Shown: in pieces, positions 5,966 through 45,864 of the stretch
How positions within the stretch are numbered: the first letter of the stretch is position 1
How the letters are laid out: every line of letters starts with the position of its first letter
Source of the DNA: a virus
Reading direction: 5' to 3' (one strand)
DNA: 50,447 bases
Virus record (IMG/VR): IMGVR_UViG_3300046484_000036
Location: 1 to 50,447 of that record
Notes under the pieces: generated by a model
Told to the model about the DNA's origin: nothing
Seen by the model: only the letters and a program-made list of their open reading frames with translations
The model's database searches: none
Position numbers and translations under genes: made by a program

Positions 5966-5975
5966 ATTTCACTCT

Positions 5976-7337: not shown

Positions 7338-7801
7338 GTCACGTCGCCCGAGCCGACTGGGCAGCGCAAGTTCCCGCCAGTGGGATACAGGGCGTAATCC
7401 CCGCGACAAACCTTCCGGCGACTCCAACGGGGTCGATAGATATCAGCCAGGTTAAGGCTGCTGGGTATGCTCCAGGGCAGATCCCGGTGTGGAACGGGAG
7501 TCGGTTTGTGCCCGGTAACTTGCCGGTGACTCCTCCAGGGGGCTCGGGGATGACCTTTGTCACACCGGTCATCACCTGGGGGGCGACACTTCGCCCTTTG
7601 GAATCGACTGAGCAGAGTCTTTTGCTGCCTGGCGTGCTGGCGAACAGTCAAGTTTTTGTACCCGCGCCTGCCGGACAGGACTATTTATTCTTCAGGGCGA
7701 AAGTTACCGCCGCGCCGACCGTACTTATCACCGTCACCAATATGAGTGGGTCTAATGTGACTTTGATTGACGGAGGGTATAAAATTTTCGTAGTTAACTA
7801 G
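7334..7801 (+). CDS. Hypothetical virion protein (155 aa)
   Basis: Track ORF with a 4-nt overlap on the previous gene. No motif recognised. Confidence 0.5.
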   Translation: MSHVARADWAAQVPASGIQGVIPATNLPATPTGSIDISQVKAAGYAPGQIPVWNGSRFVPGNLPVTPPGGSGMTFVTPVITWGATLRPLESTEQSLLLPGVLANSQVFVPAPAGQDYLFFRAKVTAAPTVLITVTNMSGSNVTLIDGGYKIFVVN

Positions 7802-9918: not shown

Positions 9919-10520
9919 TGGTTAAGAGGATACACTTTATATGGGTTAACCGGGGGGACAACCCTCCGCCTCCCCGGTGTTTGGGGTATATAAATTCCTG
10001 GCGTAGATTATACCCTGGCTTCCAGATAAAACTTTGGGGGGTAGATGATATGTTTGGGTTTAGGGACCCAAAAATAGACGAAGCCTGGAAAAACCCAGAC
10101 TACGATGAAGCCTGTATCTCTAATCGTATGCGGTTCTTAATTGTGCAGAAAGAAGGTGGGCTTTATGCGGACGTAGATACTAAACCCGTAAAACCCATCA
10201 CTGAGGAATTGATAGGTATGGATAATTTCGCGGTTGGTCAGGTCAGAAATCTTACCCGACCAGATAAAATTTCTGTAGAAACCAATATATTTTACGCCGA
10301 GGCAAACCACCCTATTTTGTCGGATCTTCTGGATCGCTTCGATTGCTGTCCGGGCCGATTCATCAATGCCTATTTGGCGGACACCTACGCAAGAGACATA
10401 AAAATCCTCCCGGAAGAGTGTTTTCACGGGCATACGGTAACTCCGAACACCTATACTCTCCACCACTCGTTAGGGTCCTGGGTCTCTAATCAGCATTCCC
10501 CGGTGAGGAAGCGTAAATAG
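9918..10520 (+). CDS. Glycosyltransferase with DXD sugar-binding region (GT32 / Gly_transf_sug-like)
   Basis: 200 aa. IHFIWV at the N-terminus, then RFLIVQKEGGLYADVDTKPVKPI (GG.Y.D.D motif typical of the OCH1/TcdA-like DXD family). Confidence 0.65.
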   Translation: MVKRIHFIWVNRGDNPPPPRCLGYINSWRRLYPGFQIKLWGVDDMFGFRDPKIDEAWKNPDYDEACISNRMRFLIVQKEGGLYADVDTKPVKPITEELIGMDNFAVGQVRNLTRPDKISVETNIFYAEANHPILSDLLDRFDCCPGRFINAYLADTYARDIKILPEECFHGHTVTPNTYTLHHSLGSWVSNQHSPVRKRK

Positions 10521-12672: not shown

Positions 12673-13692
12673 ATGCCCGTCTATTCCGAATTTCAAAGCG
12701 AGGGCGATGCCGGTCAGGCTTTTAACCAGGGCCAAAACGCGGGTATGTCCATGATGGAACGCGCTCAACAGATGGAGCAACGCGGCGCGCAGGAAGAGCG
12801 GCAGAAGGCGATTTTTCAAGCCGCGATGCCGGTGATACAGGCCAAGAATCAGGCGGATCTCGCAACTGCCCATGAGACAATTCAGAATGCGGTTTCTGTT
12901 CAGAACCAGAGACAGCAAATACTCCCTATCTTAGCCCAAGCGCGGACAGAGTTTCACAACAACCAGTTTATTCCTGACATCAATGAGCGGGCTGCGGCGA
13001 ATACGCAGTGGCTTGGGAAGTATGCCCAAATCGCTAATATACCGGATTACAAGGGCGAATTCGATACGTATAACCACCTATCTACCCAAACGACTCAGGA
13101 TCAGATGAAGATCGCCACACTGGCTAATCAGAACGATATGATGAGTCAGAAGTTGAAAATGAGTGAGACTTTAATGGGGGATAAAGTCGCATCTTCAGAG
13201 AAAATTGCAGGGCTAAAATACCAGACTAATTTAGATATAGCCAACGCCAATATTGCTTCACGCAATCTGATTGCTAGTGGTAAACAAGGTGACGCGGCTG
13301 CGATTCAGAATGATATGAATGCGATCAATCAAAATCTAGCCGCAGGGAATCAGGGTACGGCGGATACGATTGCTCAGGCAATGCAGACAAAATATGGGCT
13401 TAAGCCTAATCAGATCGCCGATAGTCTCTCTAAACTAGCCGATGGGGATGATCGGTCTGCTGCAGTTGCGAAAGCTACAGGTAACGAGGAGAATTTTCAG
13501 AAGTACTCCGCAAAAGCTCAACTTCTCCGCACCCAAGCGGAAGGGATACTAAGCAAGGCCACTACGCCAGTGACGGCAGCACCTGTCACGGCAACCACTT
13601 CACAGCCAAAGAATGTCACCCCTGAAGAGTATGCGAAAATCCCTTCGGGCGGAAAATACATGTGGAACGGGCAGGAAATAACCAAAAAATAA
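12673..13692 (+). CDS. Putative internal virion protein (339 aa, Q/A/N-rich helical)
   Basis: ATG at 12673, one nt after the previous TAA (12669-12671). The track start at 12622 would overlap. No enzymatic motif found. Confidence 0.5.
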   Translation: MPVYSEFQSEGDAGQAFNQGQNAGMSMMERAQQMEQRGAQEERQKAIFQAAMPVIQAKNQADLATAHETIQNAVSVQNQRQQILPILAQARTEFHNNQFIPDINERAAANTQWLGKYAQIANIPDYKGEFDTYNHLSTQTTQDQMKIATLANQNDMMSQKLKMSETLMGDKVASSEKIAGLKYQTNLDIANANIASRNLIASGKQGDAAAIQNDMNAINQNLAAGNQGTADTIAQAMQTKYGLKPNQIADSLSKLADGDDRSAAVAKATGNEENFQKYSAKAQLLRTQAEGILSKATTPVTAAPVTATTSQPKNVTPEEYAKIPSGGKYMWNGQEITKK

Positions 13693-16600
13693 ATGCCCGC
13701 CAATGATACTTGGACCCCACCTGAAGTCTCGGCAATAGGGCAAGCGCCGGATACCGGAACTCAGACCGCTTGGCAGCCCCCCGAAGTGGCTGAAACGAAA
13801 TCTTCATGGGTTCCCCCCGAGGTGGCGAGTCTGAGTAAGCCTGCCGCTGATGAAGGCCCGCAACTTCGCGCCGCTACACCGGGGGATGAAACCCGCTGGG
13901 CATCACAAGATACTTGGATGGGGCGTATAGAATCCTCGATTAGGGGTACTGCAACTGATCTCGGCGCGTCTATACAAGGCCGCTATACCGCTGCGCAGAA
14001 GGCTTTTGATACTCGGTATTCTGCGACTCCAGGGGATGGAGCTAAACCGGTATTTCCCGCCCTATTGAGCGCCGCTGGAGCGGCAGTATCGCCTTCGCCC
14101 GGCGAAGCCTTGAACTCTCAGCGGAAAGCAGAATTGGCGGTAGGTGGGGCACAGTCGCTTAAAGAGGCGCAAGAACTCAAAGATGTTCAGGGTAACTATG
14201 AGCACCAGTGGCTCCCGATAGCGGAACCCGGGCAGACTAATTTCTTGGGCCACAGTGATGCAGTTCAGGCGTTGATGAAGCCAATCACTAAAGAAGATGA
14301 CGACACTAAAGTACCTTTTACCGGGGGTACGATCCCCCTAAGTGCAGTAAAGGCGGTATATCAGCCAGTGGCTAAAACAGTAAATTCTCTAGTCACGCCG
14401 GAAAACGCGTTAATAACCGGGCTTACCGCTGGGGCAGGAGAAATTCCGGCAATAGGGAAAGCGGTATCTACATTTTTCGGAGTGCAGATGGGGGCGGGTT
14501 CTCTCCAAGCGGTCAAACATCTTCAGGAGTTAAACTCGGACCCCAATGCCACAGGGGCACAAAAAGTCTCGGCGGGTATAGAAGCGGGGATTGGAGTGGC
14601 AATGGCCAAGTCACTATTAACTCATGCAATTTCTGGGGAGGCGAAGGCGCAGATAGAAACCCTCCCCCCGGAGCAACAATTAGCTGCGGTATCTAAAGAG
14701 GTAGGCACGTCCCCCGAGCAACTACTCAAGGATGCCTCAGATCAGATGGAATTAGACTTCAAAAATAGCAAAGTCGAAGTCCCACCAGAGCATGTCCCCG
14801 TTACGATTCGCCGGGAAGATGGAACGGAGTATCAAGCCGGAATGGCCGGATACCAAGATGGCGTGCCGGTCATCACGAATTTAGAGACGCATTCCACCAC
14901 GCTTTTAGGTGATAAGGAAAATATCGTCGGGGATATGCCTGCGCCAGAACTATGGGAGCGTACCTCCGCGGGTAATAAACTTTCTACTTCTCCGTTTGAG
15001 GAGTGGGTTCCCCCTGAAGTGAGGGGGGAAACTACTCCTACCGCCAACGTGACGGTGATGGGCAGCCATACCCAGGTTGAAATTCCCGGCGAAGGGGATC
15101 GTCCGGCATTCTCCGGTACGCCCGAGCAGGCGCGAGATGCGGGCTTCGACGTGCCGACAGATGGGCTAGAGGACGGGTCGCATAAAGTACCGATTGAGCC
15201 CCCACTCGACCCGAACATAATAGGTATAACCAAGAAGCTCATGAACCAGCGGCGCGTAGCAGCCGGACTCCCGGAGTTTGAACCCTTAGAAGTCCGGTCA
15301 GATCAAGTAACTTGGGACAAGACCTTAGCAAAAGTCGCTGCGGACCCCACTCTCCCAGCGCGCAACATCGAGGAACTTAGGTCGGGTAATCGAGTGCCTA
15401 CGGATGCTGACGAAGCGTTAAACCGATACCGCATTGCAGAACTGGAAGTTGAGAAAACCGAGGCTACTAATCGAGTGAACTCCGCTATAGAGAAGGGCGA
15501 AGTGCCTGATATGGCGGACCGGCAAAAAGTGGAAGAGCTTCTAACCAAGCAAGTGGACGCGATGGATGTCATTCGCGCAAGTCACGCTGAAACGGGACGC
15601 AGTTTACGGGCCATCCAGCTGATGACCGACTTGGATTTTTCCGCCCCGAAACTGATCTCCGAACGTCAGGCGCTCTCCGGGGAAAAACTAACGCCTGAGA
15701 AGATGGCCGAGACTCGCGATATTGCCGAACGAGTCAAGACGACCCAAGCCGCGCTGGAGAAAATCACGGCAGAGCGGGATGCCCTCCTTGCTGAGAAAAC
15801 GTCCAAAGCGGCACACGAAGAGTTGGTCAAGAAAGTCGCGGAGGAAACGGAAGCGCCAGAAGCCGAGAAGCCCGCAAGGGCCAAAACCCCATCGAAACTG
15901 CGCGAGTATATCAAGACCCAGGCCGAAGCCGCCCGGCAGCGTGTGCGCGAGCGTACCGGTGAACTCCATGCGGGTATAGACCCAACACACCTTACCGATT
16001 TGGCGATTATCGGCGTGGAACATCTGACGCGCGCGGGGGAGAACCTCGCTGCCTTCACTAAACGTATGGCGGATGACGTAGGTGAGTGGGTGAAGCCCTA
16101 TATTGAACAGATTTTTGGTGAAGCGAAAAAGATGCGCGATTCGATGGCGAAGGACTTCACCCCGAAAGAAGTGGTGGATGCCATCGGGAAGAAGCTCAGC
16201 ACCGGCGGTGACGTAACCCCTGAATTCCGCAAGTTGGCCCGCGAGGCAATTGAACTCGGCATGACGGATCGCAACCGCGTGATTGACTTCGTGCACGACC
16301 AGATCCGCGAGACCGCTCCCGAGATGGACCGGCGTGCTGTGCAGGACGCTATTTCCGGCTACGGGAAGTTTCGTGAGCTGAGTAAGGACGAGATTACGCA
16401 AAAACTGGCAGACGTATCCGCTCAACTCCGCCTCGTCTCGAAACTGGAGGACATCCTCGCCGGTAAAGAGCCAGAGAAGACCGGGGTTGAGCGCCGGGCT
16501 CCATCGGAAGAGGAGACTGCACTCCGCAACAAGATTGCCGAACTAGAGAAAAAGGCTAATGAAGACGTTGCAGTATCCGCCGCGCTGACTCGTGAGAAAA

Positions 16601-18408
16601 CGGCGATTGAGAAGCAGATCACCGAACTGGAGCGTAAGACTTCAACAGGCGATCTCTCCACCAAAGGACAGAAGGTAAACCGTCCTGCTGCCGATCCTGA
16701 GCTTGAACTTCTGAAACAGCGCCGGGACCAGTTGAACCGCAAGCTGACCGACATGCGTCGTGAGGCCGCGCCGAAAGCAGACCCGAACCAGACTCGGTTG
16801 AAGGCGATGAAGACGCGCCTAGAGAATAGCACGAAAGAGTTTCAGCGTCGCTTGGATGAAGGTGACTTCACCGCGAAGAAACCTCGGGCTCCAATCACCG
16901 ATCCTGCAGTGGAGAAGGCGAAGGCGGAGAACCTAAAAGCTAAACAAGCATATCAGGATGCTTTAGCGCGGGATCGAAACGACAAAGCTGGAATATACGC
17001 TCATGTGGTTAATCGGTTCCTGAAAGTTTACCGTGGATTTATATTAAGTAGTCCTGTGGTGATCGCCAAAATATCGGGCATGTCGGTGTTTCGTGCTATC
17101 TCCCATCAGTTGGATGAGGTTGCGGGGGAAGCTATACATAGACTCCCCGGCGTTTCCCAAGCATCTAAATACGCCCCTATTGAGGGTGGGGGGTACCAGT
17201 TCGATGCTGAGGTACAGGCGTTGACGAAAATTGCCCTGGCGGGCCACGATCTAATAACAAAACTGACTGGTAAGGAGACAGACATCGAGATCCTATGGGG
17301 TAAACACCATGCGGATCTAGCGGACCGCTCCACAACTTTGGGGAAGATAGGTGCGGGGATAGATACCGCGGCCGACTATCCGGGGCAAGTTCATGCCGCA
17401 ATAAAAGCTCCGATTAAACGCCTCGCCTATGAATTTGCAGTAGCGAAGGGGATAAACTGGGCGCGTAATAATGGGTTCGATGTGTACGATCCAGCGGTTA
17501 TAGCCAAGATCAAGATCGCCGCCTATGAGTACGCAAATCGGAATATCGCCATGCAGGATAGTGCTGCATCGAAAAAGATGGGCCAGCTTTTCTCCATTGA
17601 GTATGACAAAGCGACCGGGGAAGCGACCCCCGGTAGCGTAACTGCCCATCTCGTGGGGGGGATAGTTCTCCCAGTGAAAAAAGTACCGGTTAATATCGTA
17701 GCAGAGGCTTTCGAGTACTTAGCCGGGACAGAGACGGGGTCTATTCGGCTGGCTAAAGCCCTTTATCAGGGGGTAGAAACTCTGAAGGATAATCCCGCCC
17801 AGGCGGATATGATTATGCGGGAACTCAAAAAGGGGGTAGTGGGTAAGGCCATACTGCTCCTCGGATTTTTTACCGCAGAATCAATTGGCGGATTGTACGA
17901 CCCGAAGAACAAGAAGCGTCCGGACGAAACTCAGGCGGGCGAGGTACGCATACCCTGGCTATCGGGACTGGTTAAAAACGGGGATGTTCCGGCATACCTA
18001 CTCCATCACCCAATGATGGAGGATCTACAATTCTCAGCCTCTATTTTTCATGGACTTAATGCCCCTCTCCGCATCCCGACCACCCATAAAGGTATGCTTG
18101 CCGCTCTCGCTAAAGGGGAGGCTACGCCTCTTGAAGTTACGGCAAATGCTTTATTTGATCTCGCGGCAGAAGTGCCTTTGGCCCGAACCGCAACGACGGT
18201 GGCGAAGTTAGCGAACTCGAATACTCGTCCAGCAGCGGCGAAAGACATTCTCCAGGGCATCGTCGTTCCCCAGGGGCTCTCTTGGGTCGCTCGGTACACG
18301 GACAAGAACGCTCAAGGCGAGCCGATCAAGCGTGAGGCCACGACAACCGTGGAGCACATCAAGGAAGCGGTCCCCGGATTGCGCGAAACACTGCCGGTCA
18401 AAAAATAA
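13693..18408 (+). CDS. Giant internal virion / ejection protein (1571 aa)
   Basis: Longest ORF in the window, with a long Glu/Lys/Ala coiled-coil centre. Four W-x-P-P-E-V motifs occur in the first 440 aa. Its size and its position after two smaller low-complexity proteins resemble T7 gp14-16 logic (inference). Confidence 0.55.
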   Translation: MPANDTWTPPEVSAIGQAPDTGTQTAWQPPEVAETKSSWVPPEVASLSKPAADEGPQLRAATPGDETRWASQDTWMGRIESSIRGTATDLGASIQGRYTAAQKAFDTRYSATPGDGAKPVFPALLSAAGAAVSPSPGEALNSQRKAELAVGGAQSLKEAQELKDVQGNYEHQWLPIAEPGQTNFLGHSDAVQALMKPITKEDDDTKVPFTGGTIPLSAVKAVYQPVAKTVNSLVTPENALITGLTAGAGEIPAIGKAVSTFFGVQMGAGSLQAVKHLQELNSDPNATGAQKVSAGIEAGIGVAMAKSLLTHAISGEAKAQIETLPPEQQLAAVSKEVGTSPEQLLKDASDQMELDFKNSKVEVPPEHVPVTIRREDGTEYQAGMAGYQDGVPVITNLETHSTTLLGDKENIVGDMPAPELWERTSAGNKLSTSPFEEWVPPEVRGETTPTANVTVMGSHTQVEIPGEGDRPAFSGTPEQARDAGFDVPTDGLEDGSHKVPIEPPLDPNIIGITKKLMNQRRVAAGLPEFEPLEVRSDQVTWDKTLAKVAADPTLPARNIEELRSGNRVPTDADEALNRYRIAELEVEKTEATNRVNSAIEKGEVPDMADRQKVEELLTKQVDAMDVIRASHAETGRSLRAIQLMTDLDFSAPKLISERQALSGEKLTPEKMAETRDIAERVKTTQAALEKITAERDALLAEKTSKAAHEELVKKVAEETEAPEAEKPARAKTPSKLREYIKTQAEAARQRVRERTGELHAGIDPTHLTDLAIIGVEHLTRAGENLAAFTKRMADDVGEWVKPYIEQIFGEAKKMRDSMAKDFTPKEVVDAIGKKLSTGGDVTPEFRKLAREAIELGMTDRNRVIDFVHDQIRETAPEMDRRAVQDAISGYGKFRELSKDEITQKLADVSAQLRLVSKLEDILAGKEPEKTGVERRAPSEEETALRNKIAELEKKANEDVAVSAALTREKTAIEKQITELERKTSTGDLSTKGQKVNRPAADPELELLKQRRDQLNRKLTDMRREAAPKADPNQTRLKAMKTRLENSTKEFQRRLDEGDFTAKKPRAPITDPAVEKAKAENLKAKQAYQDALARDRNDKAGIYAHVVNRFLKVYRGFILSSPVVIAKISGMSVFRAISHQLDEVAGEAIHRLPGVSQASKYAPIEGGGYQFDAEVQALTKIALAGHDLITKLTGKETDIEILWGKHHADLADRSTTLGKIGAGIDTAADYPGQVHAAIKAPIKRLAYEFAVAKGINWARNNGFDVYDPAVIAKIKIAAYEYANRNIAMQDSAASKKMGQLFSIEYDKATGEATPGSVTAHLVGGIVLPVKKVPVNIVAEAFEYLAGTETGSIRLAKALYQGVETLKDNPAQADMIMRELKKGVVGKAILLLGFFTAESIGGLYDPKNKKRPDETQAGEVRIPWLSGLVKNGDVPAYLLHHPMMEDLQFSASIFHGLNAPLRIPTTHKGMLAALAKGEATPLEVTANALFDLAAEVPLARTATTVAKLANSNTRPAAAKDILQGIVVPQGLSWVARYTDKNAQGEPIKREATTTVEHIKEAVPGLRETLPVKK

Positions 18409-19147
18409 CCTGCCGTAAGTTCGGCAGAATCCCATTCCGCTTATTCATACTAGCGGTACGTCCGTCGCACTGATGCCCCCAGCCCATCTTATGGTTGATC
18501 GGCAACTGGCGTGCGTACACCTCGTCGTACCGCTTCGCCAGCCGCTCTACGCCGCCAAGATGCTTGAAATGGAGTAGGAAAGTCTCGGGGGTCGAGTAAG
18601 CGGTAGGGTTTGAGAACGAAGCCCCGGAAATGAGCTTCCCGGAGCATCCGTGAGCCCCGAGGCCATAATAGATCTCTTTCACCCGTTTCGCCGAGAACAT
18701 CGCTGGTTTAGCGTACCATTGATTGTCCGGCGCGCCCATCTTCACTTCATCGTAAATCTGGCCGTCAGTTGTGGGGAAGGTGTCCGTGAACATCTCGTAC
18801 CCGTAAGGCTTCACCACGTTCACGCCCTGACGCTCATATTCTGCGATCGTCTGCTCCGTTCCTTTTGGGAAGTAGATCAGCTCGTCCGCATCGACAACGA
18901 TCACCCAGTCAGCCGTGGTGCCTTTCCAGCTCTCGTCCTTCACCCGGCAATACTCGTGCTCGTCAATCACGCCGCCCGTGTGTCGATCCGCCCGCTCCAC
19001 GCCTGCCGCTTTGATGATCTCACGGGAGCCGTCGGTGCTCTGGTCGTCATGGACGACGATACGAGAGCAGAAGGTTTTGTAGTGGCGAAGTGAATACCCG
19101 ATAATGTCGGCTTCGTTCCAGCAGAGGATATGGGCTTCTACGTTCAC
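18398..19147 (-). CDS. Glycosyltransferase family 2-like (Glyco_tranf_2_4-type)
   Basis: 249 aa. HILCWNEADIIGYSLRHYKTFCSRIVVHDDQSTDGSREII and WVIVVDADELIY are classic GT-A landmarks. The ATG overlaps the upstream stop as ATGA (19147-19144). Confidence 0.7.
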   Translation of the reverse strand: MNVEAHILCWNEADIIGYSLRHYKTFCSRIVVHDDQSTDGSREIIKAAGVERADRHTGGVIDEHEYCRVKDESWKGTTADWVIVVDADELIYFPKGTEQTIAEYERQGVNVVKPYGYEMFTDTFPTTDGQIYDEVKMGAPDNQWYAKPAMFSAKRVKEIYYGLGAHGCSGKLISGASFSNPTAYSTPETFLLHFKHLGGVERLAKRYDEVYARQLPINHKMGWGHQCDGRTASMNKRNGILPNLRQVIF

Positions 19148-20445
19148 GACGTTTTAACTGCCGCCACCTGCCAGGCTTTGTGGATGACATTGAGGTGCGC
19201 AGCGTAGGTTTTGAGGAAGAAGTCGATGGCGAACTTGGGCCGGTCAATCTCGTTCGGCGTGAGAGTCCAGCCGTAGTCGTCCCAGATCATCACTCCGCCG
19301 ACCTTCAGAAGGTCGAAAGCCATGACCGAATCCCTGATGACATTGAGCGAGTCATGGCAGCCATCAATGTAGACGGTATCCAGGGGGGTCTTGAACTTCT
19401 TCAACATTTCGTTGGATTGCCCTTTTAGGATAGCGATCTGCTTGAAGCCCTTCAGTCGCTCGCGGGCGGCGGCTTCCACCTCGGAGAACTTGACCGACTT
19501 ATCGTACTCGGGCGAGCCCTCGAACGTGTCTACGCAATAATAGAGCGACTTCGGGTCGGTGAAGATGCGCGTACACATCGACTCGGCGGACTCGCCGCGA
19601 CAGGTGCCAATCTCCAGACCGACAGCGGGTTTCCCCTTCAGGTGGGCAAGCCACTGCTCCCACTTGGGGCCGTGGACTTCATCAGTCTCAGATAGACGTG
19701 GGGGTTGTATACTCATAGGTGTTTCGATTGGTTTAGGTTCTCCGAAGATGCGGTACGCCTCGGCATTCGGGCCGAGCATGGCGGTGAGTTTCGTCAGTTG
19801 GGGGTCGAGTTGTACGCCGCGTCCGGGCGACATGATATGGCCAGCCCCGTAGCCGAACTTGCCCGGCATCCCTTTGATTCCTACCACGAGGCGAGTTGAT
19901 TGCGGGTAGTCCTGCGGGCGGACAACGAGTTTCTTGAATGGGTGCTGCACGTAGTTCCAAAGGCGGATGTCGATGTACGGGCAATCCGTGGTGGCGGCGC
20001 GCAGTAATTGCGGGAAGAGCGACACCTTGAAAGACGTGGAGCAAAAACTGGAGTGCTGGGAATTTCGATGGGAGAACCAAGTGCGAGAGTTGACGTTGTA
20101 GTAGGTCGCATCACCTTCGCCTACCAAGTCGGCAGAGCCAAGCCACTTCTCTACGTTCTCAAGGTAGGTTGGGGCATACCCGTCGTCATTTTCCCAAATT
20201 ACTACGGCATCGCCCTTTACGAGATTATCTTTAACCATTCGCCGGATTTTCGCGGCGAGACTACCTTTCCCTCTGTACTCCGGCCAGAAGTGATACTCTT
20301 GCCCCCGTGTGCAGACCGTTTGCGGGTCATCGTCATCTAGGCATAACCACTGGTCGGGCTGGCGCGTTTGCTGGGAGACGTATTTTTCGCAGAGTGCCCA
20401 GGCTTCGGGGCGATAAACAGCCGTGGTGACTAGGGTGAGTTTCAT
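19144..20445 (-). CDS. Bifunctional glycosyltransferase-like / class I SAM-dependent methyltransferase (Methyltransf_24/TylF-like C-terminal domain)
   Basis: Start moved to MKLTLVTTAVY (ATG 20445-20443, ATGA overlap with the upstream stop). The N-terminal half has a GT-A-like acidic motif (IWENDDGY). The C-terminal half has GLEIGTCRGES, VYIDGCHD and GGVMIWDDY. Confidence 0.6.
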   Translation of the reverse strand: MKLTLVTTAVYRPEAWALCEKYVSQQTRQPDQWLCLDDDDPQTVCTRGQEYHFWPEYRGKGSLAAKIRRMVKDNLVKGDAVVIWENDDGYAPTYLENVEKWLGSADLVGEGDATYYNVNSRTWFSHRNSQHSSFCSTSFKVSLFPQLLRAATTDCPYIDIRLWNYVQHPFKKLVVRPQDYPQSTRLVVGIKGMPGKFGYGAGHIMSPGRGVQLDPQLTKLTAMLGPNAEAYRIFGEPKPIETPMSIQPPRLSETDEVHGPKWEQWLAHLKGKPAVGLEIGTCRGESAESMCTRIFTDPKSLYYCVDTFEGSPEYDKSVKFSEVEAAARERLKGFKQIAILKGQSNEMLKKFKTPLDTVYIDGCHDSLNVIRDSVMAFDLLKVGGVMIWDDYGWTLTPNEIDRPKFAIDFFLKTYAAHLNVIHKAWQVAAVKTS

Positions 20446-21128
20446 GTCTCGTGCGCGAACCGATGCGTCTGTAAATATGTCGCCCACTTCTGGCGGAGAT
20501 AGTTGTGGTTCTGGGCGAAAAACTTTTTCACCTCGGGCACTAGATAGCTTGTACTTCCCGGTTTGTGGTGGATCGGGAAGTCGGCGATGTGGATGGTGTA
20601 TCCTAACGAACGCATCCGTATGCACAAATCTGCATCCTCCGCGTAAGCCCACTTTAAGTTCGGATCAAAGAGCCCGTGTTTCTTCACGAGGTCAGTACGC
20701 ACCACGAGGCAAACGCCCTCGATGTACTCCACCACACCCCCCTCCAGCCCACCGACGAAATTATCCCGCAGTCTACAGCCTTTCGGCCCGACAACCGCCG
20801 CTTTCGGGTTGATCGCGAACTGCCGTTTGATTTTGCCCAGCCAACCCAGGGGCAGGACGCAATCGTCATTAACCATAGCAAACAGCGGAGTATCCGTCAT
20901 ATGGAGCGCCCGTTTGTTGGGCTCGATGAAGCCTTCGTTTGTTTCGTTTACGACCATGCGGACATTGGTGTAGGTATCCGCGAGGATCTGGAAATATGCC
21001 GCTGCCTCGATATTACCATTGGCGGTTAGGATTAGGTCGAATTGCCCGCCACCGTTCAAGACGGACTTAATGCAGAGCTTGGCTTTCTCCAGTTGGGTGT
21101 AGGTGATGATTGAGATAGTGGTTCTCAT
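20442..21128 (-). CDS. Glycosyltransferase family 2
   Basis: 228 aa. ISIITYTQ...CIKSVL... and LFAMVNDDCVLPLGW are typical GT2 N-terminal and DxD regions. ATGA overlap at 21128-21125. Confidence 0.75.
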   Translation of the reverse strand: MRTTISIITYTQLEKAKLCIKSVLNGGGQFDLILTANGNIEAAAYFQILADTYTNVRMVVNETNEGFIEPNKRALHMTDTPLFAMVNDDCVLPLGWLGKIKRQFAINPKAAVVGPKGCRLRDNFVGGLEGGVVEYIEGVCLVVRTDLVKKHGLFDPNLKWAYAEDADLCIRMRSLGYTIHIADFPIHHKPGSTSYLVPEVKKFFAQNHNYLRQKWATYLQTHRFAHET

Positions 21129-21313
21129 GGCGTATGCCTATTGTTAAGTTTATTCAGCTCTTCGGTAAAACCCCGCCAAGGATTCCCCATTAGGTCATTG
21201 AACCGAACCTGTAGGTTTGCCTGCTCTATTTTTCGCGCACGGCTTGATTTGATATACATCAGAATCACGAGAAACCATGTGACGGGGGCTAGAATTGCGA
21301 ATAAGATTATCAT
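21125..21313 (-). CDS. Small membrane protein (62 aa)
   Basis: Internal ATG at 21313 of track ORF 21125..21448. MIILFAILAPVTWFLVILMYIKSSRARK... has one TM helix. ATGA overlaps at both ends. Confidence 0.5.
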   Translation of the reverse strand: MIILFAILAPVTWFLVILMYIKSSRARKIEQANLQVRFNDLMGNPWRGFTEELNKLNNRHTP

Positions 21314-22413
21314 GGCCTCAGCGCATCTACCTTGCTCACGATTCGTTCCGGCGTGATCGACGCGAGGACGGAGCAGAACTGCTCCTGGCGGCAGGGCATC
21401 GGGGGGAAATGGAGGCCGTTCTTCGCGTGCCACCGGCAGTTCTTGCACTCACCTTCACCGGTGATGGCGTGCGTGAGCGGGGCTTTAGCCGTGCGGGTTT
21501 GCCAGGAGAACGCCCCGAACAAACCGACCGCGGGGACGTCGAGAGCATGGCAGAGGTGAAGGAGTGCGGAGTCCACGCCAACGAAGGCGTTGCACTGCGA
21601 AAGGAGCGCGGCGGACTCGCGGAAGGTCAGTTTCTCCGTGGTCATGTTGTGGACATAGGTCCGCTTCATGTTCGGCGCAAACTCTGGGATCTGTCCCGGA
21701 TGCCCGAATAGGAAAACTTCCCATCCCCGATCGTCCAGACCGAAGATTACTTTTGCCCATAGGTCTAGCGGATAGTTGCGGTTCTTCACTGACGCGGCGA
21801 GTTGGATGCCGACGCGGGGCCGGTTGCTCGTGATCCAGTTCTTCGCGAGGGATTTCTCGTCGTCTGTGGCTACGTACACGGGTTTGTAGTCTGTGACTGT
21901 GACGCCGAGGGCGTTTGCGAAGGCATCGGTGGCGTGTTCGGTGTTGGCCAACTCCATTACGTTTTCGAGAGATTGAATGAACCAATAGTTCTTCACCTCG
22001 GAAGCGTTCAGCGGGTAGGGAACGAGGGAATCAAAAAGCGCGGTGTTCTCGAAAAGAGGGAAATGCTCTTTCCGGCAGCAGAGGTGGAAGGTGCATTTTG
22101 GCTGAGTCTTTTTATATGCCTCGATTACTGGGGTGAGGAAGAGGAGGTCTCCGATTGCGCCGGAGCGCATTAGCATGATCTTCGCTGGTTCGGTTTCAAT
22201 GGCACCAAAAACTACCGTGCCTTTGTTCTCTAGGCGAGCCTTGTCCCGATCCGACATGAGAGCTAACTCGAAGGCGTTTTGGTCCTGGAGTATCCACTCG
22301 CCGGGTTGTAGCATGCCGATGGAGCCGCCAACGTGTAGCGGGGCGCTGAGATTTAAGATGTGCATTTTACGTCGTAGGGGTTTGGATTGATCGTGGGAGG
22401 GCATAGTGCCCAC
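21310..22413 (-). CDS. Glycosyltransferase family 9 (heptosyltransferase-like)
   Basis: LMRSGAIGDLLFLTPVIEAYKK, GIQLAASVKNRNYP and FVGVDSALLHLCHALDVPAVGLFG match RfaC/RfaF-type GT9 landmarks. The start is uncertain (ATGs at 22413, 22365, 22314). Confidence 0.75.
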   Translation of the reverse strand: MGTMPSHDQSKPLRRKMHILNLSAPLHVGGSIGMLQPGEWILQDQNAFELALMSDRDKARLENKGTVVFGAIETEPAKIMLMRSGAIGDLLFLTPVIEAYKKTQPKCTFHLCCRKEHFPLFENTALFDSLVPYPLNASEVKNYWFIQSLENVMELANTEHATDAFANALGVTVTDYKPVYVATDDEKSLAKNWITSNRPRVGIQLAASVKNRNYPLDLWAKVIFGLDDRGWEVFLFGHPGQIPEFAPNMKRTYVHNMTTEKLTFRESAALLSQCNAFVGVDSALLHLCHALDVPAVGLFGAFSWQTRTAKAPLTHAITGEGECKNCRWHAKNGLHFPPMPCRQEQFCSVLASITPERIVSKVDALRP

Positions 22414-22538
22414 AAAAGAACTTCCGATGCTGCCCGACTATAGGAGTACCCGTGTCTCTTTGCGTATACCTTAACCTCTCGGGACACTTCCGGGTCCAAT
22501 CGAACTTGGAGCTTGCTTTTCTTTTTCACGTGGGGCAT
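22353..22538 (-). CDS. Possible ribbon-helix-helix (CopG/Arc-like) regulator
   Basis: 61 aa. KSKLQVRLDPEVSREVKVYAKRHGYSYSRAASEVLLWAL has a beta-strand, helix, helix pattern. It heads the GT operon. It overlaps the longest version of the GT9 ORF. Confidence 0.4.
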   Translation of the reverse strand: MPHVKKKSKLQVRLDPEVSREVKVYAKRHGYSYSRAASEVLLWALCPPTINPNPYDVKCTS

Positions 22539-22559
22539 TCGTGGGGCACGAAAGAATTG

Positions 22560-23069
22560 ATGTCAACCATGAAAAAAGATCTCACGCAGGAAAGACTCAA
22601 AGAATTGTTGAGCTATGACCCGGAGACGGGGGTGTTTACTCGTCGAGTGGATCACGGGAAACTCTTTAAGGCCGGAGACGTAGCCGGGGGGTTGCGCGGG
22701 GGCAAGTATTGTACTGTAGGTGTGGATTACCACAGATACCAGATGCACCACGTAGTTTGGCTTTATGTTTACGGTGTATGGCCCACCGAAGAGATGGATC
22801 ACATAAACGGAGACCCTTTCGATAACCGTCTAGCGAATCTACGCCCGGCAACTAGGCAGGAGAACGCCCGGAATTTAAGACTGCCTAGGCATAATACCTC
22901 CGGAGCGAAAGGAGTGTATTGGGCTAAACGCGCAAAGAAATGGGTGGCCAATATCCAGACGGGGGGTAAATGCCGGTATCTGGGGTCTTTCGACCTACTT
23001 GAATCCGCGAAGCTGGCGTATGAAGCCGCAGCCGAAAAATATTTCGGCGAATTTAGGAGGACTGCCTAA
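22560..23069 (+). CDS. HNH endonuclease with AP2-type DNA-binding domain, adjacent to large terminase
   Basis: ATG at 22560 (MSTMKKDLTQERLKELLSYDPETGVF). HNH block MDHINGDPFDNRLANLRPATRQEN. AP2-like block GVYWAKRAKKWVANIQTGGKCRYLGSFDLLESAKLAYEAAAEKYFGEF. The track start at 22452 would run antisense through the RHH ORF. Confidence 0.85.
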   Translation: MSTMKKDLTQERLKELLSYDPETGVFTRRVDHGKLFKAGDVAGGLRGGKYCTVGVDYHRYQMHHVVWLYVYGVWPTEEMDHINGDPFDNRLANLRPATRQENARNLRLPRHNTSGAKGVYWAKRAKKWVANIQTGGKCRYLGSFDLLESAKLAYEAAAEKYFGEFRRTA

Positions 23070-23070
23070 T

Positions 23071-24828
23071 ATGCCAGCCAAGGAGTCGGATTGTATAGAA
23101 AAATACGGATTGCTATGGAAGAAATCCGAGGGCGCGAATCTGCTCAATATCGAACTCGCCGCGTACCGCGATCCGGTGATGTATAAAACCGGGATGTCGA
23201 GGGAACACCATTTCCGTCAGGCGTTCTCCTACATGTGGCCGGAGAGCGTATTTACTTGGAACGACTGGGCTCAGCTCATGTGTTGGAGCTGGTGCGAATA
23301 CAATTTCATATCCATCATGGGCCATGCGAGTGCGGGTAAGACCTTCAACACGGCGCATTTTGTCCTGCTGGATTACCTGTGCGCCCCCCAGGCTACCGCC
23401 ACGAGTCTTGTGACGACCAAGTTCGATGCTCTAAAGGGGCGGCTTTGGGGCGATTTTCTGATAGCCATAAATAACGCTAAAACACGGGACGTTATAAACA
23501 ACACCTTTCGAGTTACCAGCACTACCAATGAGCTTAAATTCTATTTACGAGGGGATGCAGTAGACCAGAAATTCTTGGTACAGGGAGTAGCGATTGATAG
23601 GGGGGATTCTAACGCCGGAAAAATCCGTGGTCACCATGTACCTCGTCGCCGTATCATCGTGGATGAAAGTCAGGACGTAAGCGACGGCATATATCTCGCT
23701 ATAGATAACGCCATGACGGGTGGAGAGTTCAAAGGCGTATTGCTTACGAACCCCGTAGAGAAGCAGTCAAGTTACGGCGAGTGGAGTAAGCCAAAAGAAG
23801 GTTGGGGGTCTATCGACGACTCTACGCTATTCTGGGAGAACAAAAGGGGGATAACTCTTCACCTCGACGGTCGGCAGTCACCAAACGTGAAAGCCCGAAA
23901 GACGGTGAACCCCAACCTGATGTCGTATGAATATTTCGAGAAGCTAGATTTGTCTACAGTAGAAGGTTGGATGTTCGGTATCGGTTTCTTCCCACCGGAC
24001 GGGACCATTGCGAAGATCTGGCCATCGAACACCATCGAGAAAGCCCGTCGGAGTGAAGCCTTCGACTTCGCCGCCACCCCATGCGCTACTCTCGATCCTG
24101 CTTTCGATAGCGATGATTGCTTCTTTATCGTCGGAGAACTCGGTACGTTACGCGACGGAAAGCCTTGTTGCTGTGCTCGGGAGTCTATCATCATCCAGAC
24201 CAAAGTAGGCCCGGGTTTTCCTGAGAAAGACTTTCAAATCGCCCGTGAGTGTATCCGTCTGTGCAAAGAGCGTGGCATTCAGCCGGAGAACTTTATTCAA
24301 GATCTTACCGGCAATGCCAGAGGCGTTTACGCTATTATGCGCAATGAGTGGACCCCAATGCCGGGGCGCGGGCAAGTGCAGGGCATATATTACGGTGGCG
24401 AAGCGACGGATCGCCCGCTCCGTACCGACGACCCCCTTGGCGCAAACGAGCAGGTTAAACGCTTCGTGACGGAGCTGTGGCTTCGTGCATCGTATCTAGC
24501 CCGCGACGGAATGCTCTGTGGCCTCGATAATATTGACCCGAAAGTTACCGTAGATTTAGACGCTAGGCGGTACACATTGGTTCAGGAGAGCGACGGTAAA
24601 CGCATGGTCGCAGAAACGAAGAAGGATTTGAAGGCGCGCATCGGTCGGTCCCCAGACGGAGGTGATGCCTTCTGCCAATTTGCCGAGCTGATGGTCCGCA
24701 AAGGTCTGCTCGGCGGCAAAGTCGCAGGTCTAGCCATCAACAATTGGGACCAGATGCGCGCCCGCGCTAAATTTCATCAGAAACGTCACATCAACGAATT
24801 TTCACATGGATCTACCGCAACTAAATAA
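23071..24828 (+). CDS. terL: Terminase large subunit
   Basis: ATG at 23071, preceded by aggagg at 23055-23060. Walker A GHASAGKT, Walker B IIVDESQD. 585 aa. Confidence 0.85.
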   Translation: MPAKESDCIEKYGLLWKKSEGANLLNIELAAYRDPVMYKTGMSREHHFRQAFSYMWPESVFTWNDWAQLMCWSWCEYNFISIMGHASAGKTFNTAHFVLLDYLCAPQATATSLVTTKFDALKGRLWGDFLIAINNAKTRDVINNTFRVTSTTNELKFYLRGDAVDQKFLVQGVAIDRGDSNAGKIRGHHVPRRRIIVDESQDVSDGIYLAIDNAMTGGEFKGVLLTNPVEKQSSYGEWSKPKEGWGSIDDSTLFWENKRGITLHLDGRQSPNVKARKTVNPNLMSYEYFEKLDLSTVEGWMFGIGFFPPDGTIAKIWPSNTIEKARRSEAFDFAATPCATLDPAFDSDDCFFIVGELGTLRDGKPCCCARESIIIQTKVGPGFPEKDFQIARECIRLCKERGIQPENFIQDLTGNARGVYAIMRNEWTPMPGRGQVQGIYYGGEATDRPLRTDDPLGANEQVKRFVTELWLRASYLARDGMLCGLDNIDPKVTVDLDARRYTLVQESDGKRMVAETKKDLKARIGRSPDGGDAFCQFAELMVRKGLLGGKVAGLAINNWDQMRARAKFHQKRHINEFSHGSTATK

Positions 24829-25036
24829 CCTATTGATAGATACTAAAGCCTTCGAGTGGATACGCCAGAATTATATTAGCATGGCCGGGTTCACGTCGGC
24901 CGTGAAATGCAGAAACCGATCCGCCCGACAGTTCCTCTACCATGCTTTCTTTAGCCGCAATCGCACCCCCCGTTGGGACGCGTCTTTTAGTGTAAAAAAA
25001 CAAGAATACAAAAATTTCATGTCATGGCCCTACTAA
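24806..25036 (+). CDS. Hypothetical protein (76 aa)
   Basis: Track ORF bridging TerL and the next gene with short overlaps. No motif recognised. Confidence 0.35.
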   Translation: MDLPQLNNLLIDTKAFEWIRQNYISMAGFTSAVKCRNRSARQFLYHAFFSRNRTPRWDASFSVKKQEYKNFMSWPY

Positions 25037-25653
25037 GATTCAAAAATGAGAAGCCTGCGTATTCAGGATTCAACTACCTCCAGAAAGAAACTGCGTTAAT
25101 CCTCACCGGGGATTCCCTGGGCGAGCTAACCCGCAAAGTAATCGACCACCGTAAGCACAAGAATCTGCCGTTCGGCTCCGAGGCTGACGTGCAGAAAGAA
25201 ATCGAGCGGTGGATCTGTGGCCGGCTTGGGAACAACGAGTGCATAGCTGAAGGTCCGGACGACTCTTGGGTACCCACGCCTCAGGACAGCAACGTAATGA
25301 GCCTGGAGAAGATTGTCGGCTTTAGCACCGCCGCCTGGACCTGGCTGAAGAGCGGGGGAGAGTTCGTGGCGAAAGAAGAAGCTCAACGTCGGGCCGCGAT
25401 CTGCTGGGGGTGCGCAGCAAACGTCGATCAAGGGCACGAGTGCTTTACGTGCTCACTCAGCAAGCTCGTCCGCTCAGCGGTGCCCGACGACCGCAGGATA
25501 GCCGGTCTTCACAGCTGTCAATTCTGCGGCTGTGATCTTGTGAGCAAGGTCAATTTGCCTGATGCGGCTATCATCGCCTCTAATGCCAATCGGGGTTTAA
25601 TCTTCCCTAGCTGGTGCTGGCAAGTTAGTCTTGCAAAGAAACCCGATGCCTGA
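25024..25653 (+). CDS. Cys-rich hypothetical protein (209 aa)
   Basis: Cys cluster CWGCAANVDQGHECFTCS ... SCQFCGCD suggests Zn binding. No family recognised. Confidence 0.55.
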   Translation: MALLRFKNEKPAYSGFNYLQKETALILTGDSLGELTRKVIDHRKHKNLPFGSEADVQKEIERWICGRLGNNECIAEGPDDSWVPTPQDSNVMSLEKIVGFSTAAWTWLKSGGEFVAKEEAQRRAAICWGCAANVDQGHECFTCSLSKLVRSAVPDDRRIAGLHSCQFCGCDLVSKVNLPDAAIIASNANRGLIFPSWCWQVSLAKKPDA

Positions 25654-25885: not shown

Positions 25886-26121
25886 TGCAACTGCGCCCCT
25901 ACAGATCTCCGACCATAGGGGCTTCTCGAAGCCAGCAGAAGTTCATGCGCCAATTCGTGCAAAATAGACTCAGGGTATTGACCCCTCAGTTGGGGCTTAA
26001 TCTAGGCTTCGATTCCGTTGGGCGCGGGGTAGTCCCGCCGCCGAGCGGTAATACTTACCTTAACCCTTCAGGATTTAGCTACTTTCGACCAGATGGGGCG
26101 TCTATATACCTACGACCATGA
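25885..26121 (+). CDS. Hypothetical protein (78 aa)
   Basis: TGATG overlap with the previous ORF and ATGA overlap with the next one. Confidence 0.4.
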   Translation: MQLRPYRSPTIGASRSQQKFMRQFVQNRLRVLTPQLGLNLGFDSVGRGVVPPPSGNTYLNPSGFSYFRPDGASIYLRP

Positions 26122-27551
26122 GCGATTTAACCACGAGTACTGCCGTCGATACCTTTATGCAGTCAGCGAGTGTCGCCGCTGCGCGTACCTCGCTTGGTCT
26201 TCCTATCGCTAATATAGGGTCAACATCGTTCACTTCTTTTAATAATATAGCGATAAATCCCCATGCTACTATTATTTATAAGGGGTATTTTTATGTATTC
26301 GATGTAGCCTTAGCATCGGCCTGTAAGATAAATGCTATTGATTTTTCCGATGTTATATATAGTACTGCTACTCACCCGATGGCACAGATTTGCGACGGTG
26401 GTGACGGGTTTTTATATGCTGTAAGCAATGTCACTCCCGTTCATATTTATAGGATCGACCCTGTCACGCTGGCTAATACGGACATGGGGAATACTACATT
26501 GGGACTGGGTTCGCGTCCATCTATCTGTTCCGACGGACTAGGCAATTTGTACGTTGTCGCTAGCAACGGTATTCAGAAATGGACTACAGGCGGAGCTCAG
26601 CTTGCCAGTGTCACCAATACGCTGCTCCTGTTGAAGGGCCATTGTATCGTCTATGCTGGCGGGTCTGTTTTTGTTACATCATCGGCAGGCGGTAGTGTCG
26701 TGCTGAAATTGTCTTCTAGTACCTTGACCGGTAGTAGTATCGCCCTTTCTACACCTTTCATCGCTACCGATGATATGGCTTTTGACTCTACTTACTTGTA
26801 TATTTTTTCTGAGTCCGGCGATCAGGGCGGAATCGGAGCGCGTGAACCCAGAATGGCGCGGGTAAAGCAATCTGATTTATCGGCTACTTATTATCATTTG
26901 GATTTGCCTAGCTACGGCGGCGTATTTGACGGAAATCGCACGGTTTGGATTTTATACGGTAGTGATACTACGTTGTCAGGCGGACGCATGGCCGCATTTG
27001 ATACCGTGAACGCGACACTGACTCCGTATGTCACTAACCTTCCGGGCATCCCTAATGAGGTTGCGGTTGTGGGTGGTACGTCATTGATCGTTACTACCTG
27101 GGGTGTGGGCGGAGGGAAGATACTCACCGTGGTCCCGCAGCTAGACGTCAGGGCAGTTGGTTTGGATGGCGTCCAAACGAGGGACTGGTCTGCCCCTTTT
27201 GCTGTGGCTGAAGACATTGATACCGGCAATACCACGCTCTATTTGCAGTCGAGTAATTTGTTTCAGCTTCTCGCGACTGTGCCCGGCGTTATCACCGCAG
27301 ATTTTTCGTTTTTTCCTGCGGCAGGTGTCAACTCATCGACTCTGTTCGTGCTCACGATTGCGAACTACGGCGTGGGCGGTGTGACTAAGACATTCGATCC
27401 TGCGGTTTTTGTTGACTCTAACGGCGTGGTCGTTGCGCCTGTGACAGTGCCTGCGTCGGGCACGGCTGTGTTTCAGTTTATGTTTATCGGTACGGATTTT
27501 GGGAGTACTGGTCCCGTCATCCTAGAAGTATCCAGAAAAATTCTAAGTTAA
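26118..27551 (+). CDS. Hypothetical virion-associated protein, repetitive beta-rich (477 aa)
   Basis: Recurrent segments such as GFLYAVSN, GNLYVVASNG, GSVFVTSS and TYLYIFSE suggest a propeller-like repeat. The function is unknown. Confidence 0.5.
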   Translation: MSDLTTSTAVDTFMQSASVAAARTSLGLPIANIGSTSFTSFNNIAINPHATIIYKGYFYVFDVALASACKINAIDFSDVIYSTATHPMAQICDGGDGFLYAVSNVTPVHIYRIDPVTLANTDMGNTTLGLGSRPSICSDGLGNLYVVASNGIQKWTTGGAQLASVTNTLLLLKGHCIVYAGGSVFVTSSAGGSVVLKLSSSTLTGSSIALSTPFIATDDMAFDSTYLYIFSESGDQGGIGAREPRMARVKQSDLSATYYHLDLPSYGGVFDGNRTVWILYGSDTTLSGGRMAAFDTVNATLTPYVTNLPGIPNEVAVVGGTSLIVTTWGVGGGKILTVVPQLDVRAVGLDGVQTRDWSAPFAVAEDIDTGNTTLYLQSSNLFQLLATVPGVITADFSFFPAAGVNSSTLFVLTIANYGVGGVTKTFDPAVFVDSNGVVVAPVTVPASGTAVFQFMFIGTDFGSTGPVILEVSRKILS

Positions 27552-45860: not shown

Positions 45861-45864
45861 AAAC

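Follow-up and report, generated by a model that had tools for sequence, protein, structure and literature searches.

The 50,447-nucleotide virus record IMGVR_UViG_3300046484_000036 of IMG/VR (positions 1 to 50,447, hereafter the window) carries on its minus strand, between 22538 and 18398, a cassette of glycosyltransferase and sugar O-methyltransferase genes. We propose that this cassette is a phage-encoded cytoplasmic pathway which glycosylates virion proteins with an O-methylated glycan, a reading to which we assign a probability of roughly 50%; we infer the acceptor, the donor sugars and the order of the steps from the genes. Six catalytic modules are intact: a GT9-family enzyme, three GT-A enzymes and a sugar O-methyltransferase domain in the cassette itself, and a GT32-like glycosyltransferase at 9918–10520. 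Phage-encoded virion glycosylation as such is already known and this is not a new kind of system. What is new is the GT9-led enzyme set, which is a hallmark of a large uncultured lineage and occurs there in two genomic configurations, and the link between the cassette and a GT-A family that is spread through the structural modules of prophages.

The cassette is led by a GT9-family glycosyltransferase of GT-B type (351 aa; 21310–22365, minus strand). The longest open reading frame (ORF) extends to 22413, where the initial annotation had placed the start, but homologues are 345–355 aa long and begin 'MHIL', and the start is therefore assigned to the ATG at 22365. With an E-value of 4.5e-24 and 85.6 bits against the Pfam Glyco_transf_9 profile (PF01075; cut-off 22), the protein belongs to this superfamily. 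An AlphaFold model based on 42 homologues (predicted local distance difference test score, pLDDT, 94.7; predicted template-modelling score, pTM, 0.90) displays a beta-rich N-terminal domain (residues 1–58), a four-stranded N-lobe and a normal C-lobe, and Foldseek places it in the GT-B fold with matches to WaaF (1e-15), TibC (5e-13), WaaC (2e-12) and also 3tov, all between 1e-15 and 1e-11. Residues G72, D73, C307, C310, C325 and C331 are invariant across the 42 homologues. Asp73 lies in an N-lobe Gly-Asp motif at the position of the catalytic base of WaaC and TibC, and the four cysteines form a cluster (Cys4) in the loop region between the last strand and the C-terminal helix. Other uncultured phages also encode GT9-fold proteins, as do Vibrio and Synechococcus phages and giant viruses; to our knowledge none of these has been characterised.

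The lipopolysaccharide (LPS) heptosyltransferases WaaC, WaaF and WaaQ (CAZy GT9) share the Pfam family of the phage enzyme, have their catalytic Asp in the same G-D motif and give the best sequence and structure matches for its nucleotide-sugar-binding C-lobe. Unlike them, the phage GT9 has a shorter N-lobe (by 45–55 residues relative to 3tov or WaaC in pairwise alignments), carries the extra N-terminal and Cys4 elements and is encoded next to morphogenesis genes, and it scores below the cut-offs of all the WaaC/WaaF/WaaQ equivalogs (best 75.7 versus 185.3 bits, TIGR02193). The shortened N-lobe argues for an acceptor that differs from 3-deoxy-D-manno-oct-2-ulosonic acid (Kdo)/heptose-lipid A. 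A different comparison is offered by TibC, an autotransporter protein heptosyltransferase with an N-terminal beta-barrel, a four-stranded N-lobe and a Cys4 iron finger formed by C339, C342, C358 and C370 (PMC4358343). Like TibC and Aah (the BAHT enzymes), the phage GT9 as modelled would combine a GT-B fold with an extra N-terminal beta domain, a four-stranded N-lobe and four cysteines ahead of the C-terminal helix. The cysteine spacing is C-x2-C-x14-C-x5-C in the phage enzyme versus C-x2-C-x15-C-x11-C in TibC, and the N-terminal domain comprises about 58 aa versus 97. The protein lies outside the BAHT equivalog TIGR04414 (25.5 bits versus a cut-off of 200) and, unlike for the BAHT substrates, no autotransporter is encoded in the window.

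The remaining cassette enzymes comprise three GT-A proteins or domains and the methyltransferase. The GT2 enzyme (228 aa; 20442–21128, minus strand) matches Glyco_tranf_2_3 (2e-9) and Glycos_transf_2 (2.4e-7) and contains NDD and ED motifs. It is followed by a 433-aa fusion (whole gene 19144–20445, minus strand), in which a GT-A domain (residues ~1–235; 19741–20445) is joined to an S-adenosylmethionine (SAM) O-methyltransferase domain (residues ~250–433 plus the stop codon; 19144–19698). The GT-A half has no Pfam match and was identified by AlphaFold and Foldseek: the model, based on 30 homologues, has a mean pLDDT of 89.1 (about 90+ in the GT-A domain), the structural match is SpsA (1qg8; 1.2e-8, TMt 0.60), and in the 30-homologue alignment E85, D87 and D88 are invariant, with D37 and D38 nearly so. 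The last gene encodes a GT2_4-type enzyme (249 aa, GTG start; 18398–19147, minus strand) that matches Glyco_tranf_2_4 (1.8e-14), has a DAD motif and shares 40–89% identity with its counterparts in relatives. The Pfam matches of GT2 and GT2_4 are above cut-off, and all three cassette GT-A enzymes can be placed in the GT2/GT-A group.

The methyltransferase domain matches Methyltransf_24 over residues 277–391 of the fusion (8.6e-15, 55.9 bits versus a cut-off of 26.3). Its best Foldseek match is MeT1 of Mycobacterium hassiacum (5e-11), followed by MycE/MycF, SpnH and SpnK. The SAM motif (G276/E278/G280) and the acidic residues D306, D361 and D389/D390 are invariant in the 30 homologues, and by sequence and model the domain is a predicted cation-dependent (Mg-type) class I sugar/natural-product O-methyltransferase. 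The five contiguous minus-strand genes of the initial annotation, with the glycosyltransferase and methyltransferase families it had assigned, are thus borne out by Pfam and, for two of them, by AlphaFold and Foldseek in addition, and the profile searches support the glycosyltransferase and methyltransferase folds. The sixth module, which that annotation did not include, is a DXD glycosyltransferase (Gly_transf_sug/GT32-like, PF04488, 3.4e-8; 200 aa; 9918–10520, plus strand) that lies inside the tail-gene block and also matches the TcdA_TcdB N-terminal motif (1.4e-6); its homologues are the last cassette gene in the related loci L022, L023 and L030. A possible fusion of a structural protein to this glycosyltransferase in another relative (a 939-aa gene in L004) was rejected, as its extra C-terminus is unrelated to the 9918–10520 protein.

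In the window the cassette forms six contiguous minus-strand ORFs, of which the enzyme genes and a 62-aa ORF span 18398–22365. As first described, it lies antisense between the tail/virion-protein block and HNH-TerL, and its last gene overlaps the convergent 1571-aa gene by 11 nt (18398–18408), an overlap of the same length being present in L004. In GC content the cassette does not differ from the genome. ATGA overlaps had been reported at every junction; three are as reported, while the fourth (19147–19144) is GTGA with a GTG start. In a provisional gene list with 51 same-strand junctions, 4-nt start/stop overlaps occur at 14, comprising 4/4 in the cassette and 10/47 elsewhere (Fisher p = 0.004), and a second run of four is found at 45076–48836. 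Overlaps of this kind are enriched in the cassette, yet they are not special to it. Shine-Dalgarno sites are present at 10 of the 45 gene starts, against a background of 15% in random 17-mers, and the leaders are A/T-rich. Because Shine-Dalgarno use is scarce and 4-nt overlaps occur throughout the genome, the overlaps fit genome-wide compaction and re-initiation rather than the coupled, stoichiometric translation originally read into them. A terminator was also said to be lacking at the cassette end. A terminator-like element is found there on the minus strand (18399–18428), consisting of a 7-bp hairpin (18428–18409) and a T-run (18408–18401) that together cover the last codons of the GT2_4 gene beside the stop of the convergent 1571-aa gene; there is no T-run after the hairpin when it is read on the plus strand, and the terminator scan overall was not above chance (8 sites versus 5.0 expected). 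A sigma-70 promoter scan of 17800–23200 returned 0 sites versus 2.9 expected, with a consensus that may not be of the host's type.

The distribution of the cassette in relatives indicates that it is a long-standing part of this lineage. On contigs of 40–66 kb, 34 full-length homologues of the fusion protein were identified, the most divergent at 39% identity. Eight loci found via the fusion protein or GT9 were compared by gene tables and tblastn mapping, and all share one layout in which the cassette begins with GT9 and lies between TerL/g209 and a large virion protein of 1100–1580 aa. The g209 gene (25024–25653 in the window) encodes a Cys-rich protein of 209 aa with a zinc-ribbon-like C-terminus and adjoins TerL and/or GT9 in every relative examined. 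To avoid circular sampling, the portal and capsid proteins were used as independent markers. GT9 and GT2 were present in 12/12 of the portal-sampled loci with enough flanking sequence and the cassette in 2/3 of the capsid-sampled loci, with its anchor position unchanged and with retention down to about 45% capsid identity. With this distribution and a genome-typical GC content, the cassette cannot well be described as 'inserted', and sequence comparison indicates that it is not a recent insertion. Nor does the scenario of a recent non-functional acquisition, raised in the initial annotation as a reason to abandon a glycosylation role, find support, since the catalytic motifs are intact and the cassette is conserved across the lineage.

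In every cassette examined the GT9–GT2 pair is present and GT9 comes first, while the other content varies. A stand-alone methyltransferase gene is found in L021–L023, L033 and L039. L022 and L023 combine the GT-A domain with GT2_4 in a single protein (487–492 aa) and have a separate methyltransferase; both loci also contain genes for a nucleoside diphosphate (NDP)-sugar epimerase/dehydratase and Gly_transf_sug, and L022 alone has an SDR gene. L021 and some other relatives have a GT2–GT9 fusion, which brings in a second GT9 domain. Where called-gene Pfam tables were available for relatives, they showed no flippase, polymerase, ligase or transporter gene alongside the cassette. HNH or DUF559 genes were found inserted within the cassette in relatives. 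A second configuration is seen in a sister clade (L033, L034, L036, L037 and L039), in which the cassette runs in sense inside the head operon in the order TerL-g209-GT9-[GT2-GT9]-GT2_4-MT24-MT11-portal. The g209 gene overlaps the GT9 start by 1–4 nt in this clade, and the 1–4-nt overlaps at the junctions leave these sense-oriented cassettes without space for a promoter or terminator of their own.

When the fusion alignment was used to scan one genome per bacterial species, only distant homologues of its GT-A domain (26–38% identity) were returned. Those examined in context lie inside the structural modules of unrelated HK97-type phages or prophages, where the GT-A homologue is the sole cassette component. 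In L016, TerL and a protease-capsid fusion are followed by a 267-aa gene and then by the GT-A homologue, after which come the portal and a gene for a collagen-like protein; the junctions overlap. In L009 and L017 the homologue lies between the TerL, portal and capsid genes on one side and the tail genes on the other, with further genes in between, and L013 has flanking genes in common with these two loci. It is found just upstream of the tape-measure gene in L020, and in L019 near a ClpP-type protease gene, presumably that of the prohead protease. On a Clostridia metagenome-assembled genome (MAG) contig, L018, an ORF at 4324–5073 weakly resembles the window's 155-aa structural protein (7334–7801) and adjoins the GT-A homologue upstream. 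It was considered as an acceptor candidate and rejected, as the similarity (E = 6e-4, 20% identity) is too weak and may be due to chance.

A DNA-level search of the cassette against GenBank phages gave no match, and a tblastn search of 50,697 GenBank phage records with GT9, GT2, the fusion and GT2_4 as queries gave only four weak or partial matches, all to uncultured phages and none to an actinophage. One record is similar in organisation: 'Caudovirales GX15bay' (GenBank MK557849.1; L041), a ~52-kb phage from mangrove soil, carries immediately upstream of TerL a run of seven genes annotated as glycosyltransferases and methyltransferases (13126–18249 of the record), and GT2, endoglucanase and mannanase genes lie a few kb from this block. 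Multi-glycosyltransferase blocks beside TerL have thus been deposited before. Like the window genome, GX15bay is of the ~50-kb class and has glycosyltransferase and methyltransferase genes by TerL, but in TerL, capsid and GT9 it is unrelated to the window lineage, the only similarity being a weak 86-residue match to GT2_4. In metagenomes the proteins of the lineage fall into at least 188 clusters for GT9 and at least 141 for the capsid. The initial view that such an enzyme set is uncommon in a phage of about 50 kb therefore holds for isolates and fails for metagenomes, as those GT9 clusters and the GX15bay block illustrate.

In the pathway that we propose, a short O-methylated oligosaccharide would be built on one or more particle proteins during assembly. 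GT9 would attach the first sugar to the acceptor protein or perform an early extension, possibly with ADP-heptose from the host pool as donor, and the GT-A enzymes would extend the chain using host nucleotide sugars. The methyltransferase domain would then cap a sugar hydroxyl, probably on the residue added by its fused GT-A domain. Candidate acceptors are the capsid protein (g393; 32259–33440), g434 (30582–31886), the portal (g740) and the structural proteins g346, g155, g349, g704, g250 and g339. Shielding, stability in soil and adsorption are candidate benefits of such a glycan. The domain fusions that join the modules are Rosetta-stone evidence that they belong to one pathway. Since the modules have been re-fused and epimerase/dehydratase and SDR genes added in some relatives, the glycan is expected to differ between sublineages around a constant GT9–GT2 core. 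Virion proteins are favoured as the target for several reasons: the cassette is kept throughout a lineage for which no lysogeny genes were detected; it is embedded in the TerL–portal operon of the sister clade; the GT-A family recurs beside the capsid, portal and tail genes of unrelated phages; no export or polymerisation gene accompanies it; GT9 departs from the LPS heptosyltransferases towards TibC-like features; and there are precedents in mycobacteriophages and in chlorovirus A064R.

According to the account in PMC12363180 (citing Freeman 2023), the mycobacteriophages Che8, Corndog and Myrna glycosylate their own virion proteins with their own glycosyltransferases. As described there, these systems (Che8 gp110, Corndog gp38, Myrna) are multi-gene phage glycosyltransferase sets, as here, and are found in lytic as well as temperate phages; cytoplasmic glycosylation of capsid or tail was shown for them, whereas for the present cassette it is proposed from gene content. 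The present cassette differs from the mycobacteriophage sets in being GT9-led, in lying beside or inside the head operon and in being kept lineage-wide. O-methyltransferases, too, belong to the mycobacteriophage sets. A precedent for the fusion protein, taken together with A061L, is A064R of chlorovirus PBCV-1. This enzyme attaches the terminal sugar of the capsid glycan and subsequently O-methylates it; like the phage fusion, it is soluble and joins a GT-A domain to a class I SAM O-methyltransferase (PMC9614988). The two are compared by architecture only: A064R comes from a eukaryotic giant virus, comprises three domains (a GT-A rhamnosyltransferase, a second glycosyltransferase and the methyltransferase) and acts on an N-glycan, whereas the phage fusion has two domains, which are also unfused or otherwise fused in relatives.

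Several observations weigh against virion glycosylation. The cassette of the window runs antisense to the structural genes, and a location within a structural module is possible for morons too. The cassette proteins have no detectable homology to mycobacteriophage glycosyltransferases by tblastn of the 50,697 phage records. The GT9 family profile is nearer to WaaF (9e-13) and WaaC (1e-8) than to TibC (7e-3), and Foldseek E-values and TM-scores are equivalent for TibC and WaaC/WaaF, for which reason a separation of the two groups by fold was rejected. Searches with the C-terminal (Cys4) region of GT9, both as a single sequence and as a 24-sequence profile, matched neither TibC nor 3tov. The Cys4 cluster is therefore taken at most as a topological analogue of the TibC iron finger, and homology between the two was rejected; moreover, CxxC...C...C motifs also occur in non-enteric WaaF-like GT9 proteins, and the cluster may not be diagnostic. 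Finally, the most distant relative, L038 (TerL 37%, portal 43% identity), is cassette-free in the 21 kb seen, and the cassette is thus not strictly essential. Between its TerL and tail genes this locus (Logan SRR14606466_461, 51,245 bp) is free of glycosylation genes; near TerL it carries instead a C5 DNA methylase and an Acb2/Tad1-like gene.

The initial annotation had named virion-protein glycosylation and remodelling of host LPS as the alternatives, and these remain the two leading explanations. On the second, which we regard as rather unlikely, the enzymes would act on the LPS core or a lipid-linked glycan at the cytoplasmic face of the inner membrane, with the effect that superinfection is blocked or that progeny are kept from adsorbing to debris. 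The catalytic C-lobe of GT9 is most like that of WaaF, WaaC and WaaQ, and modification of the LPS core would need no added flippase, since host MsbA exports the core. In addition, the cassette in the window is a separate antisense unit with possibly its own regulator and contains a membrane ORF, and glycosyltransferase clusters in cyanophages are commonly read as surface remodelling (PMC12801897). Against this, GT9 falls far below every LPS heptosyltransferase cut-off, its acceptor-binding N-lobe is truncated and remodelled, and the membrane ORF is absent from all relatives. In the sister clade the genes lie inside the TerL–portal late operon, which would be poor timing for a change of the cell surface, and the GT-A family recurs beside capsid and portal genes. 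Furthermore, phages without lysogeny genes keep this cassette lineage-wide, whereas conversion cassettes typically occur sporadically, as accessory genes of temperate phages. The Gtr seroconversion cassettes of temperate phages are likewise phage-borne glycosyltransferase genes, but Gtr systems use membrane-embedded flippase and glycosyltransferase proteins that act in the periplasm and are accessory genes linked to integration modules. The enzymes of the present cassette are all soluble, a membrane-type hydrophobic segment being confined to the 62-aa ORF; the cassette is lineage-wide, and no integrase or repressor was matched by the ORFs of at least 90 aa, which places it outside that group.

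It is also conceivable, though improbable, that the acceptor is another cytoplasmic molecule, such as a free or lipid-bound methylated oligosaccharide, a small molecule, a peptide or a host protein, modified in the course of host takeover or anti-defence. Weak matches to peptide or small-molecule glycosyltransferases (MftF, 3.4e-8; SunS, 3e-3), and the hint of protein-glucosylating toxins in the 9918–10520 gene point in this direction, as does the structural resemblance of the methyltransferase to MeT1, its best match, whose substrate is a cytoplasmic methylmannose polysaccharide. However, those matches all lie far below the family cut-offs, five glycosyltransferase domains and a methyltransferase exceed what the inactivation of a host protein needs, and this reading would leave unexplained why unrelated phages, too, show an association with morphogenesis genes.

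DNA hypermodification was considered in addition to the alternatives of the initial annotation. The glycosyltransferases would here place a methylated glycan on hydroxylated pyrimidines and so evade restriction, as in T4, RB69 and the TET/ThyA-linked clusters. The cassette adjoins packaging genes, and multi-glycosyltransferase DNA-glycosylating phage clusters do exist, some of them near terminase and including GT-A and GT-B enzymes with heptose and other sugars, but in the known routes the acceptor base is made by a ThyA homologue or by a C5-methyltransferase with a TET-like dioxygenase (bioRxiv 10.1101/2023.12.21.572611; PMC13326640). Neither these nor any other family forming a hydroxylated base was matched by any ORF of at least 90 aa in the complete genome (Pfam/PHROG), the sole DNA methylase is of N6/N4 type and GT9 resembles heptosyltransferases and not the T4 beta-glucosyltransferase, so that this very improbable reading was set aside for want of a precursor-making enzyme.

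The window represents a complete genome of ~50.4 kb, as its ends share an identical 36-nt sequence within a 33-nt tandem-repeat array. The same Pfam/PHROG search over ORFs of at least 90 aa matched no integrase, recombinase or repressor family, in line with the original report of no integrase or repressor. Family searches identified PolA, a DUF2800 nuclease, an Enc34-type SSB, a PriCT2/DUF5906 primase-helicase and a SNF2 helicase as well as the DNA methylase and several HNH endonucleases. None of the capsid, portal, TerL and tail proteins belongs to a PHROG family, and GT9 and the small ORFs of the cassette likewise have no PHROG match. No tblastn relative of the structural proteins (including capsid and TerL) or of GT9 was found among the 50,697 records; a generic PolA module is the only part with relatives there, and it is uninformative on lifestyle, since temperate phages carry it too. 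By these searches the lineage is one without a cultured relative, and a scan of GTDB with one genome per bacterial species found no prophage belonging to it. As to the host, no tRNA was found in the window that could serve as a clue, the MAG bin names of GT9-bearing relatives conflict (one 'Terracidiphilus', one 'Bacteroidia bacterium') and there are none among the capsid-protein relatives. The near-absence of Shine-Dalgarno use suggests a host such as Bacteroidota, and the host is probably not an actinobacterium.

Two small ORFs complete the cassette. The first (61 aa; 22353–22538, minus strand) overlaps GT9 by 13 nt and had been suggested to be a ribbon-helix-helix (RHH) regulator at the head of the operon. 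Its family matches are weak (DUF6364, 0.0024; HicB, 0.027), and the best Protein Data Bank match is the RHH regulator ArtA with E = 1.3. It is 83% identical in L004, where it also lies directly upstream of GT9, but there are only weak matches in L025 and L027 and it is not conserved across the lineage. The second (62 aa; 21125–21313, minus strand), flanked by ATGA overlaps on either side, had been called a membrane protein and does have one N-terminal transmembrane-like helix (Kyte-Doolittle 2.7 over residues 1–19), but a homologue is absent from every relative. GT9 and GT2 abut in L002, L003 and L024, including the two loci (L002 and L003) whose fusion protein is 93% identical to the window's, and elsewhere its slot is occupied by unrelated RHH-like, HNH-type or DUF559 genes. 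A role as a conserved membrane anchor was rejected on these grounds.

Further features of the window lie outside the cassette. The 1571-aa protein carries a W-x-PPEV motif in three copies within residues 1–45 (N-terminus 13693–13850) and one near ~450; the first three are kept in L004, although the remainder of the protein is only ~30% identical. It has a weak DarB-like PHROG match, and a T4_Y16D domain is present in one relative. Between g209 and portal, in a variable slot of the head region, lies a gene for a 477-aa protein with 21% Ser/Thr (26118–27551), which has no family match and no homologue in any relative mapped. A gene for a GroES-like Cpn10 co-chaperonin (5892–6281) is found directly upstream of the tail-gene block. 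There are at least five HNH-type endonuclease genes (719–1015, 1020–1553, 22560–23069, 38584–39222 and 48814–49308), two of them with AP2 domains. The 33-nt (11-aa) tandem repeats form three arrays (50217–50447 plus 2–357, 2279–2471 and 3311–3616), the first of which crosses the circular junction. Two minus-strand ORFs, 3283–3783 and 2234–2764, encode 11-mer repeats ('AWKAYDEAKAP' and 'ADYAAKHAPLL') after a short Cys-containing N-terminal domain and have no family match.

If particle proteins are glycosylated by this cassette, phage-encoded virion glycosylation would extend to a widespread environmental lineage with a different enzyme set. Tentatively, and at a little under even odds, we would go further and propose that virion glycosylation reaches beyond actinobacteriophages and giant viruses to this ~50-kb uncultured lineage with possibly Bacteroidota-like hosts, in the form of a heptosyltransferase-led, sublineage-diversified O-methylated glycan. 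Were this broader reading true, the GT-A family would mark the same process in many unrelated prophages. The module shuffling among relatives (GT-A with methyltransferase, GT-A with GT2_4, GT2 with GT9) provides Rosetta-stone evidence for the order of the steps, and the analysis yields two genomic markers for metagenomes and prophages, namely a GT9 with the extra N-terminal domain and Cys4 cluster, and the ~235-aa GT-A family in head and tail modules. Glycans on the particle surface affect antibody recognition, stability and adsorption, and a pathway of this kind would thus be relevant to phage ecology and to the therapeutic use of phages.

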